A stretch of DNA of 20,300 nt, taken from Candidatus Nanohaloarchaea archaeon. GTDB lineage: Archaea > Nanohalarchaeota > Nanosalinia > Nanosalinales > Nanosalinaceae. Position numbers and translations under genes: made by a program. Within the stretch, counting starts at the first letter, position 1, and the number at the start of each line of letters is the position of its first letter. Under the pieces are notes generated by a model. It did not search any database and had not been told where the DNA came from. It saw only the letters and a list, made by a program, of their open reading frames with translations. Positions 7,567 to 18,949 of the stretch are shown here, piece after piece. The stretch spans positions 1 through 20,300 of the forward strand of contig JBKHHG010000013.1 in the NCBI GenBank assembly GCA_046539225.1, given 5' to 3'.

Positions 7567-7700
7567 ACGAAAATATTCACCTTAAAGTGTATAGAAACTA
7601 TAGTTCGGCAATCTTTAAAAAAGAGATTTTCTGGCAGGTCCAGACTTCAATAGTATTCTAAGAAATTTCTGCTCTAAGCACGAACATTGAGATTCGTGCG

Positions 7701-7733
7701 GTAACCAATCGCCAGCGACCGGATTAATGAACC
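7701..7733 (-). repeat. Direct-repeat copy of the tRNA-Ser 3' end plus trailer
   Basis: 7701-7725 is identical to 7801-7825 (25 bp, period 100). The match continues with TGAACC after a 2-nt insertion in the T-loop. Confidence 0.95.
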
Positions 7734-7809
7734 AAACTTCTGAAAGTTTGATCATCAGATTGCATGGTTCAGAGAACCATGCGTTGCGTATCGATCGAGC
7801 GTAACCAAT

Positions 7810-7899
7810 CGCCAGCGACCGGATTTGAACCGGTGAGGGGCGGGTATGCCCCAGCAGATCTCGAATCTGCCGCGTTCAACCAGACTCCGCCACGCTGGC
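7810..7899 (-). tRNA. tRNA-Ser(CGA), intronless, CCA not encoded
   Basis: Acceptor GCCAGCG/CGCTGGC with G discriminator, anticodon arm GCAGA-TTCGAGA-TCTGC, long variable arm GGGGC-ATACCC-GCCCC, T arm ACCGG-TTCAAAT-CCGGT. Confidence 0.95.
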
Positions 7900-7949
7900 A
7901 CAGCTTTTCAGACCTGTATAACTTTCAAGGCGAAAAGGCCTTTAAATAA

Positions 7950-16611: not shown

Positions 16612-16947
16612 CTATTCCGAGGTTTCCTCCATGTTTGCTTTAATTTCTTCTTCGTCCATCTCTGACTTAGGTTCGTCCGGTACAGCAGGTTCCTCCTCGA
16701 TGAAGTCGTATTTTTTACTTGGAGGCCTCGTATCTTTTTCAGGTTCTTCCTCGTACTCCATGGCAAGGCCTTCTGACTCCAGAACTTCGAAAAATTCATC
16801 CCAGGAAATTTCCTCCAGCTTCTCACCTTCTTCGAAGTCGACTCTGAGTTCGGCAAAGGTTTCAGGAACTTTTGAAGGTGTTCCCCCGTGTTCAGTGATC
16901 CAGTCCTCAATCTCTGTGTGATCTCGAGTAGTAATAGTATCATTCAT
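16612..16947 (-). CDS. Small acidic conserved hypothetical protein (TT.DH..I..W....GG.P...LR.DF...LEEISWDEFF family)
   Basis: The pattern resembles a widespread uncharacterised small-protein family. GGAGGT SD upstream; directly follows 16960-17223. Confidence 0.75.
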   Translation of the reverse strand: MNDTITTRDHTEIEDWITEHGGTPSKVPETFAELRVDFEEGEKLEEISWDEFFEVLESEGLAMEYEEEPEKDTRPPSKKYDFIEEEPAVPDEPKSEMDEEEIKANMEETSE

Positions 16948-16959
16948 TTCTAAAACCTC

Positions 16960-17223
16960 CTAAGACTGTATCTTTTCCACTATCTTTACCGCCTGATCCC
17001 GGGCCTTTTCCTCGCCGGCCTCCTTCTTTATCAGGACGCTCTGAATAGTCCAGTCATCCTCATCTTCAAGCTTTCCCATCCTTACCTCGCTTCCCTCGGA
17101 TACAGAGGTGGCGGCGTTTTCAGCCCAGTCAGGCGTTCTAATCGCATCGAACTTGTCCGGATCATTAAACCTGACGTGGTAGTATTCTCCCTCAAGCTCA
17201 ACTTTTTCTACATCTGGAACCAT
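16960..17223 (-). CDS. Small conserved hypothetical protein (YYHVRF.DPD.F..IRTPDWA)
   Basis: Start moved to ATG 17223 (MVPDVEK), which has TTTTTTAG about 23-30 nt upstream. Resembles haloarchaeal hypothetical proteins from memory, unverified. Confidence 0.75.
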   Translation of the reverse strand: MVPDVEKVELEGEYYHVRFNDPDKFDAIRTPDWAENAATSVSEGSEVRMGKLEDEDDWTIQSVLIKKEAGEEKARDQAVKIVEKIQS

Positions 17224-17313
17224 ATTACATCTCTGACCCCGCATCTAAAAAAACAAAATTACAGGCCTAAACATTCAACACTCCTCAACCAAAATCCTCA
17301 AAACTGAAAAGCA

Positions 17314-17339
17314 GAAGTCCCGACTCCAGGATTCGAACC
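17314..17339 (-). repeat. Direct-repeat copy of the tRNA-Tyr 3' end plus trailer
   Basis: GAAGTCCCGACTCCAGGATTCGAACC is identical at 17314-17339 and 17388-17413 (26 bp, period 74). Confidence 0.95.
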
Positions 17340-17391
17340 CTACGAAAATCGGAGATTTTCTGGAGGATATCGAATCCGAATTAAATTGAAG

Positions 17392-17465
17392 TCCCGACTC
17401 CAGGATTCGAACCTGGGACAATCCGCTCTACAGGCGGACGCTCTGCCAGACTGAGCTAAGTCGGG
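17392..17465 (-). tRNA. tRNA-Tyr(GUA), intronless, CCA not encoded
   Basis: CCCGACT/AGTCGGG acceptor (archaeal C1-G72, A73), D arm GCTC..GAGC, anticodon arm TCCGC-CTGTAGA-GCGGA, T arm CCAGG-TTCGAAT-CCTGG. Confidence 0.96.
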
Positions 17466-17507
17466 GATCTCTCTGTCTTAGCCAGGTAAGAAGCGTGAGA
17501 GCTTCGT

Positions 17508-17523
17508 ACTGAGCTAAGCCGGG
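17508..17523 (-). repeat. Direct-repeat copy of the tRNA-Tyr 5' end
   Basis: ACTGAGCTAAGCCGGG matches 17450-17465 (ACTGAGCTAAGTCGGG) at 15/16, period 58. Confidence 0.85.
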
Positions 17524-17620
17524 TTTTTGCTCATCAAGAGCAAGGCCTCGGACTGAGCAACGTGTTCAGGCCTGTTTGAAGGCCTGTGTTAAATGTAAGG
17601 GGTTGAAAGTTTTTTTATAC

Positions 17621-18949
17621 TTACTCGGGTTTGAACTCTGCGTTGATGGTTTTCGAGGTATCGAGTACGTGTTCTCCGTCTCTGAGGACTGCGGGGTCGA
17701 GCTCTACTCCTTCCTCTACTTCTACCTTGGGCTCGATGCTGTACCGGAAGATTCTCTGATCGCCGGGGTGAAGATCCTGAATCCACCAGCGTAGCTCCGC
17801 GCCATCTCCCGTCTGTTTTACCTCTGGATCGGCCATGTCAAACTTCGAGTTCAATCCGGCTATATTCGGTATAAAGTCTTCAAGAAGAACATCACCATAG
17901 CTCTGGGAGCTCGAGTTTTCGACCTGTAAAGTGATGTCAAGGCCTTTGTCTGTTTTCTTAACGGTTTTCTCAACGCTTACAGTTGAAGTAATCCTTTTCA
18001 ACGCGACGAGGCCTATCAAAAGCGCTAAAACACCTGAAACAGGAATCCAGTAGTCAGTCCTGACCCTGAGCTCCATCTCCTCTCCTGGTTGAAGGTTTTC
18101 GCTCCAGCTGTAAACCGTGCTGGAACCGTTATCGGTTTGAACGGCTTCAGGAGCATAAACAACCGGGGAAATGTATGAAGGTTTCTCGATCGAGTAGTTA
18201 AACGTTGATTCGACGTTGCCGGTGTTTCTAACGTTCAGGACATCGTTGACCACGAGAAGCATGTCTTCCCTGCTCCTGTTCTTTTCAAAGGACTCGACTT
18301 CTTCTACCTGAATGGACTCTGTGTACTCTCTGCCGTTAAGGCCTATCGACAGGGTTTTCCTGCCAGGTGATTCATACCTTGGGACTTCAAAAGTCGTGGA
18401 AACCCTTCTCTCTCCGCCAGGAACTATAGGCCCGAGCTCCACAGTCTTTGTAGAATTCAAAAGGTTTATCTCGACGTCTCTGTATTCTGATGTCGAGGAG
18501 TCGACGTTTCTGAACGTTAAACCTATTTCAATAGTTTTTCCAGGTTTGTAGCTTTCGTTTTTGTCCAGGTTAAGAAGGTTAAGGCCTCTATCTCTCTGAA
18601 CATTGAAGCTGAAACTGTCTCTAACTTCTTCTCCTTCTTCGTTGCGTATCACAAAGTCTGTACGGTAGTTTCCACGTATCGCTGATTCTTCAGGGTTTAT
18701 CTCGACATTGAAGTAAGAATTGGAAGAGTTCAGGGTTTTGGAGTCGCTGTATGAGTACCACCGGCTTCTGTGGTAGTCAAGAATACTTAAATCGTATTTT
18801 TGCGGAGATCCAGAGTTTTCAACGTTTAAACGGATCTCGGCAGAGTCATCCATAGAGGCCTGAGGATCTAAAGCTTCGGAAGTTACCTGAAAACCCGATG
18901 CGAGGCCTACAAGGATGAGAAGTGCCGGGATCAGCGCCGTTTTCTTCAT
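17621..18949 (-). CDS. Exported/membrane-anchored cell-surface protein with Ig-like (CARDB/DUF11-like) domains
   Basis: Signal-peptide-like MKKTALIPALLILVGLASG, beta-rich repeats (L.VEN.G, V.NTGN, L.PGE), a TM helix (YWIPVSGVLALLIGLVALKR) and a further beta domain. Many NxS/T sequons. Confidence 0.75.
   Translation of the reverse strand: MKKTALIPALLILVGLASGFQVTSEALDPQASMDDSAEIRLNVENSGSPQKYDLSILDYHRSRWYSYSDSKTLNSSNSYFNVEINPEESAIRGNYRTDFVIRNEEGEEVRDSFSFNVQRDRGLNLLNLDKNESYKPGKTIEIGLTFRNVDSSTSEYRDVEINLLNSTKTVELGPIVPGGERRVSTTFEVPRYESPGRKTLSIGLNGREYTESIQVEEVESFEKNRSREDMLLVVNDVLNVRNTGNVESTFNYSIEKPSYISPVVYAPEAVQTDNGSSTVYSWSENLQPGEEMELRVRTDYWIPVSGVLALLIGLVALKRITSTVSVEKTVKKTDKGLDITLQVENSSSQSYGDVLLEDFIPNIAGLNSKFDMADPEVKQTGDGAELRWWIQDLHPGDQRIFRYSIEPKVEVEEGVELDPAVLRDGEHVLDTSKTINAEFKPE

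Follow-up and report, generated by a model that had tools for sequence, protein, structure and literature searches.

How does a tRNA gene come to lie between duplicates of both of its own ends, each of them joined to a short sequence that folds back on itself? The question is raised by a tRNA-Tyr gene in a 20,300-nt stretch of nanohaloarchaeal DNA (called the window below, by which we mean the whole stretch), which belongs to a 607-kb, 82% complete genome (G000). Acidic proteins and the range of taxa in which the element occurs point to a nanohaloarchaeon as well. Read from the outside towards the gene, both flanks begin with a copy of the gene end; after 0-4 nt there follow a C-GAAR..YTTC-T hairpin, a degenerate inverted copy and a spacer. 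Between the tRNA and its duplicates lie 48 bp on the 3' side and 42 bp on the 5' side (Table 1). The initial annotation had described this arrangement as one design shared by both flanks. Every position that it gave for the exact 26-bp repeat, the 15/16 repeat, their spacers, hairpins and inverted segments proved correct, and the shared design was confirmed and recurs at many tRNA genes. Two features that it had overlooked are a third, decayed 5' unit and a likely promoter farther upstream.

Table 1. Parts of the tRNA-Tyr locus (positions in the window).
Feature	Position	Strand	Remarks
tRNA-Tyr(GTA), intact, intron-less, without encoded CCA	17392..17465	-	Rfam RF00005, 67.9 bits
3' duplicate, exact: tRNA positions 52-73 and the next 4 nt of genomic trailer	17314..17339	-	= 17388-17413
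3'-unit core hairpin: perfect 7-bp stem, 3-nt loop	17344-17360; with fixed unpaired neighbours 17343..17361		
3'-unit inverted arm (degenerate copy of the T-arm duplicate, closest over the 8 nt 17370-17377) and A+T-rich spacer	17362..17387	-	
5'-unit degenerate inverted copy (17477-17485) and spacer reaching tRNA position 1	17466..17488	-	
5'-unit core hairpin: 5-bp stem, 6-nt loop	17490-17505; with neighbours 17489..17506		
5' duplicate of tRNA positions 1-16, differing at a single base (G5)	17508..17523	-	15/16 vs 17450-17465
Third 5' unit, older and decayed: D-arm remnant, shrunken hairpin, inverted arm	17527..17560	-	
Likely promoter: A+T-rich motif also present in the empty alleles of G001 and G004	17607..17620	-	

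On the sense strand of the tRNA, the core hairpin of the 3' unit reads A-GAAR..YTTC-G and that of the 5' unit C-GAAR..YTTC-T, which is the mirror orientation. The 3' duplicate bears the G57 allele of its home genome. The A+T-rich motif upstream likely acts as the tRNA-Tyr promoter; in empty alleles of the same genus its distance to the tRNA is 20-28 bp, and here it has been pushed outwards. The three ORFs flanking the gene (16612-17244 and 17621-18949, minus strand) have no Pfam match at an E-value of 1e-8.

The locus is not a product of misassembly, an outcome that the initial annotation had named as refuting: in two samples of the same study the whole stretch lies on a single contig without joints, one of these contigs being possibly the source of this DNA, and the layout recurs in other genera. 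Within the 607-kb genome the 26-mer repeat reaches a BLAST E-value of 5e-8. A region of 241 nt folds with a z-score of -4.1 (0 of 200 shuffles were equally stable), and each flank folded alone scores about -2.2. Taken by themselves the inverted arms are weak in the window, with shuffle p-values of 0.025 for the 5' unit and 0.05 for the 3' unit, and we regard them as real because such arms recur in other units. At the locus Rfam reports only the tRNA, plus two chance matches.

Several tRNA-based arrangements were considered and rejected. Against a split or permuted tRNA, whose leaders would be mutually complementary, each flank folds on itself and an intact gene is present; no separate middle piece of a tRNA was found in the 82% complete genome. 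A nested spliced tRNA was dismissed after analysis of bulge-helix-bulge motifs and folding. Retrocopies of mature tRNA do not fit copies that lack CCA and extend as far as 17 nt into the genomic flank, and a single composite element around the tRNA is contradicted by 5' and 3' units that occur separately. The above-chance co-occurrence of both kinds of unit probably reflects the genome-wide load.

Among 106 tRNAs of four genomes (ARAGORN calls, of which some are possibly false and to which some missed genes might be added), 31 have a 3'-end and 11 a 5'-end duplicate, a raw count without a shuffled null. The pattern is not absent at other tRNAs. The 5' copies mostly end at tRNA positions 14-17 and unsplit 3' copies begin at positions 52-55, with duplicates of 12-40 bp as called; where a single end sits at a D- or T-arm, the gene-end copy beside it spans 14-40 bp. 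An inverted arm passes the shuffle test in 16 of 23 5' units and 20 of 39 3' units, leaving 26 of the 62 units without a significant arm, and the GAAR..YTTC motif is absent from 6 of the 5' and 9 of the 3' units (15 of 62), with other hairpin modules occupying the same places. One example of such modules is tRNA-Ser(CGA) in the window (7700-7900, minus strand), where a 25-bp duplicate of the 3' end encloses different hairpins; the head of its module recurs in several introns and trailers, and seven of its eight sites in G000 lie within 250 nt of a tRNA.

A genome-wide search for the spacer hairpins, one of the checks proposed for this locus, found a family well above simulation. We defined its motif as a perfect GAAR..YTTC hairpin with a stem of at least 7 bp and C..T or A..G neighbours, and compared each genome with three order-5 Markov simulations. 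Perfect hairpins numbered 19 in G000 (simulated: 1, 2 and 2), 40 in G010 (6, 5 and 6), 52 in G021 (4, 4 and 2) and six in 240 kb of G022 (2, 1 and 0). Stems vary in sequence, yet 132 are perfect, compared with 12 in simulation. Of the long repeats that enclose the hairpin, 20 lie at tRNAs, two at the 3' ends of protein genes and none in plain intergenic DNA. In the two protein genes (L039, G000:C4:4478-4567; L120:16748), the last 26-30 bp are duplicated around the hairpin, in one case with a clear inverted arm. The idea of tiny palindromic elements at D- and T-arms holds at many tRNAs and is too narrow as a description of the family, since its hairpins also occur in tRNA introns, at start codons, before a 16S rRNA gene and in frame in a protein gene. 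At L047 (G000:C30:4173-4227) two tandem family hairpins stand just 5' of a 16S-like sequence, which we take to be the 5' end of the 16S rRNA.

Could the flanks instead be eroded attL/attR sites of ordinary integrative elements, as left by a provirus? Archaeal tyrosine integrases are known to use att sites in the T-loop or in the 5' half of tRNA genes (pTN3-like), where a partial duplication of the tRNA restores the gene (PMC8371274), as the duplicates do here. Tyrosine recombinases (PF00589) are present in 26 of 36 relatives, none of them conserved and none in G000, and a recombinase site with a fixed 6-7-bp overlap reached only a z-score of about 2 in 27 double hairpins. Neither an integrase nor the kilobase cargo of such elements was found beside the tRNA-Tyr, whose flanking ORFs belong to no Pfam family. 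Unlike att sites, the units have a cargo of about 45 bp and an inverted copy of the target, and spacers of a uniform 40-60 bp with one motif stand at many tRNAs and many non-tRNA sites. The explanation is already largely refuted and, in our judgement, hardly credible. A weak and seemingly conserved PF00589 match, inspected in G010 alone, is presumably a DEAD-box helicase, going by its motifs.

The units are patchy within genera. The region matched in 55 of 61 genomes, and from the best 29 relative loci together with the window we scored 29 intact tRNA-Tyr loci, one further locus (L013) being incomplete. The 5' copy is present at 13 of 28 scorable loci and the 3' copy at 8 of 27, fractions that are upper estimates because similarity to the window decided which loci were included. 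Among the 26 loci scored on both sides, seven have both copies, five only the 5' copy and one only the 3' copy. The empty alleles sought by the initial annotation are present in genomes of the same genus: G001, G003 and G004 have neither copy. Where copies exist, they match the allele of their own genome at 91 of 95 variable sites (55 expected). In a tRNA-Leu 3' unit common to G000 and G004, gene and copy have changed together with the inverted arm unchanged, and its presence in both genomes indicates that some units are old.

In a second form of the family, two ends stand face to face as a double-hairpin unit of 43-54 bp. Filled and empty alleles were found within a genus at four such loci, two of them gene junctions and two in-frame sites in one protein gene with inserts of 48-54 nt. 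At two of the four, degenerate sequence of about the same length stands in a third genome; another two sites failed to align cleanly. A target duplication of at least four out of five bases flanks 28 of 57 double hairpins, compared with 5.2 in permuted pairs (p 0.0005), and the other 29 have no clear duplication. Double hairpins adjoin an ATG in 22 of the 57 cases, and at one junction the unit forms a mini-ORF overlapping both neighbouring genes (read by eye). Of 21 co-oriented junctions that bear an element nine precede ribosomal-protein genes, as opposed to one of 40 controls, which were sampled from 647 junctions with gaps of at least 25 nt and so under-sample the tightly packed ribosomal genes. 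In a pattern scan of GTDB, 35 of the matches listed (120 of about 170) pass the two-hairpin test; among these, 31 are in records titled as nanohaloarchaea, four in records of an 'uncultured archaeon' and none in bacteria. One 532-aa gene (L042, G000:C12:19140-20075), whose start we take to be asparagine-synthetase-like, contains two in-frame double hairpins and a single one and is variable within the genus. Elements are also nested, with double hairpins in dead T-loop copies and in older hairpins (L039, G000:C4:11100-11240; L002; L129; L140).

We consider it likely that the hairpin family is mobile. Our preferred reading, which we hold with somewhat better than even confidence, is that the two flanks of the tRNA-Tyr gene are separate footprints of one tiny, non-coding family of hairpin repeats, likely mobile, likely acting as single-stranded DNA and predicted to be moved in trans. 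The best description is that of a non-autonomous palindromic element similar to REP and MIRU, whose one-ended insertions would be resolved by fold-back copying. A predicted trans-acting enzyme would engage the single-stranded hairpin end at strongly transcribed DNA such as tRNA genes and junctions of ribosomal-protein operons. Two-ended events would give the compact double-hairpin insertion. In one-ended events the new strand would fold back, copy the gene end backwards with errors and re-anneal further in, so that the gene would be whole again and a dead copy would stay behind; later recombination between gene and copy may keep both alike, and insertions in the anticodon loop might survive as intron cargo. 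Fold-back agrees with the structure of L002, which looks the youngest of the units: its duplicate takes in 17 nt of trailer, and the last bases of this flank are a 4-nt match to the T-arm, at the very point where the inverted arm begins. A double hairpin landed later inside its core. No insertion event in progress was seen among the units. For the single-strand, fold-back route as such our confidence falls a little short of even.

The wobble pairs bear on which strand folds. We counted transition mismatches between copy and arm in those units whose arm is significant (36 of 62). On the sense strand, 3' units have 19 G.U and 4 A.C pairs, whereas 5' units have 1 G.U and 11 A.C; on the strand that reads arm-hairpin-copy, which is antisense in 5' units, the count is 30 G.T to 5 A.C. 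The G.T-rich strand thus leaves the gene and reads through the arm, A-GAAR..YTTC-G and the copy. Counted as distinct events the ratio is 25 to 5 (p 0.0003), or 21 to 5 without four junction events; because the genomes are related by kinship, the p-values overstate significance. Inside double hairpins the ratio is 7 to 1 (p 0.07), and single core hairpins are at chance level (5 G.T, 2 A.C). Composition does not cause the bias, since the aligned copies contain G as often as C, and transcription-linked deamination does not fit the 5' units. The bias speaks for a single strand oriented by the element.

The same counts bear on the suggestion that the flanks are selected RNA structures, be it leaders and trailers for the folding or processing of pre-tRNA, stabilisers of operon mRNAs or decoys for integrating viruses. 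Enrichment at highly expressed loci, copies that follow the tRNA allele and the junction mini-ORF are in its favour. Yet a role in pre-tRNA folding is hard to reconcile with wobble pairs that follow the orientation of the element instead of the tRNA transcript, and a selected structure should be neither patchy within genera nor inserted in frame within a protein gene. The leader/trailer proposal of the initial annotation is accordingly not supported, and we consider selected RNA structures as a whole very unlikely.

The main rival to a DNA element is a route through RNA, by which the archaeal splicing endonuclease would act, or once have acted, on the hairpins: intron-like RNAs, once excised, would re-enter abundant RNAs and be copied back into DNA, and the copies of tRNA ends would be leftovers of intron-containing genes. 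The targets are indeed abundant RNAs (tRNA, rRNA and ribosomal-protein mRNA), and transposition of introns among tRNAs has been reported in Thermoproteales (PMC4033280). Introns were called in 52 of 99 tRNAs of G000, G010 and G021, mostly 40-250 nt long, and 16 of the 52 contain the hairpin (0.31 expected), 14 of them with an A before it on the sense strand; none of seven tRNAs called in the G022 part has an intron. The introns give the impression of mosaics assembled from a small set of hairpin modules. Moreover, 5' units often have a 7+7-nt spacing, a 4/4 central helix is present in four of 16, and the third, oldest unit of the window (17527-17560) is the only one there to form a full bulge-helix-bulge between copy and arm. 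Real introns are relaxed as well, with 18 of 52 passing a strict bulge-helix-bulge test. Set against these points, the precursor of the window has no more bulge-helix-bulge motifs than shuffles (13 vs 14.4), none of 18 3' units has a 4/4 central helix and both main units of the window score 2/4, so that they differ from bulge-helix-bulge introns. Splicing would not rebuild the tRNA, copies with genomic flank and without CCA are not expected from mature RNA, the wobble pairs of 5' units lie on the antisense strand, and reverse transcriptases are found in just five of 36 genomes. We therefore regard the RNA route as improbable. The few reverse transcriptases seen (L036-L038), of about 340-350 aa, occur in a minority of relatives and possibly belong to diversity-generating retroelements.

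If the family moves as DNA in trans, an enzyme might be expected to accompany it. None of the five families considered (HUH, Cas1, reverse transcriptase, DDE and tyrosine recombinase) tracks the element. The Y1/HUH transposase (PF01797) is present in six of 14 controls and in none of 36 family relatives; neither it nor a tyrosine integrase, both of which the initial annotation had suggested looking for elsewhere in the genome, was found in G000 (82% complete). Cas1 was detected in three genomes (3/24; 3/41) and not in G000, which together with the variable length of the duplicates separates the units from casposon- or CRISPR-type integration, and DDE_Tnp_1 (PF01609) in 4 of 24.

This result also suits an explanation without any dedicated mobiliser, in which template switching during replication or repair of strongly transcribed genes makes the fold-back duplications, ordinary recombination spreads the motif and quasi-palindrome correction keeps it perfect. 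Such correction would account for stems that vary in sequence and remain perfect, and several tRNA-Leu 5' units consist of a copy and an inverted arm without a core hairpin. What template switching leaves unexplained are the clean 43-54-bp units with fixed ends and duplications of about 5 bp at unrelated sites, and the insertion of units into units. We give it little weight, if somewhat more than selected RNA structures.

Taking the family as a mobile element, we compared it with known systems. Double-hairpin elements of fungal and algal mitochondria consist of two adjacent hairpins without coding capacity, and we know of no mobiliser for them; the present elements differ in their prokaryotic chromosome, A+T-rich fixed motif and gene-end duplication. 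Like MITEs, double hairpins have 5-bp terminal inverted repeats (CGAAR..YTTCG, partly by search definition), target duplications and the four filled/empty loci; unlike MITEs, the single-ended tRNA units have no second end. REP, BIME and REPIN sequences served by TnpA(REP) are short, extragenic, strand-oriented hairpins that occur singly or as inverted doublets and are non-autonomous (PMC6006769). The family hairpins resemble them in size and in standing singly and as inverted doublets between genes. They differ in having NCA/NGA feet on the folding strand instead of a 5' GT[AG]G foot (the window does have a GTAG, but on the 3' side of the hairpin, and orthologues do not conserve it), in the lack of a Y1 transposase in the family, in the inverted copy that accompanies their long duplications of gene ends, and in targeting tRNA arms, introns and start codons. 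Mycobacterial interspersed repetitive units (MIRU) are 40-100 bp long, lie between the genes of operons and show 4-bp direct repeats, filled and empty sites and overlapping mini-ORFs (PMC3184786). The likeness, which is one of layout, extends to operon-junction insertion, short direct repeat and mini-ORF, whereas the present family is archaeal, has two separate short hairpins and takes a second, single-ended form at tRNA ends. Palindromic elements of Rickettsia (RPE) and Methanocaldococcus jannaschii are found in frame in protein genes, and RPE also in RNA genes (PMC2229807, citing Suyama 2005); the elements here are half the size of RPE and duplicate tRNA ends instead of lying inside the mature RNA.

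The family is real and lineage-wide and apparently undescribed, its unusual traits being the duplication of gene ends with an inverted copy and the overlap with tRNA introns. We found no description of it in the open-access article texts searched; the matched passages of PMC10266531 give tRNA intron counts and do not mention such repeats. It touches on two open questions, namely how REP- and MIRU-like repeats spread without a transposase and where archaeal tRNA introns come from, for which these 1-Mb genomes offer a compact test case that combines an end motif, filled and empty alleles, two outcomes of insertion, a strand rule and intron hairpins. A bolder view, which we put forward as unlikely, is that an undescribed, gene-less selfish DNA uses a host-encoded activity to enter the most highly transcribed genes, repairs them by duplicating the gene end through fold-back and gave rise to the long modular tRNA introns of nanohaloarchaea. 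In practice, dead copies mimic att sites and may mislead the annotation of proviruses and tRNAs, and double hairpins introduce mini-ORFs as well as peptides inserted in frame.

Two observations concern neighbouring matters. Viruses were considered as carriers and set aside: one hairpin variant has 39 matches in IMG/VR, and none of the flanks printed there shows a second hairpin or a tRNA copy. The palindrome AGGCCT, with 118 sites in the window, exceeds expectation about 20-fold in both G000 and G010 and 12-fold in the part of G022, and is under-represented in G021.
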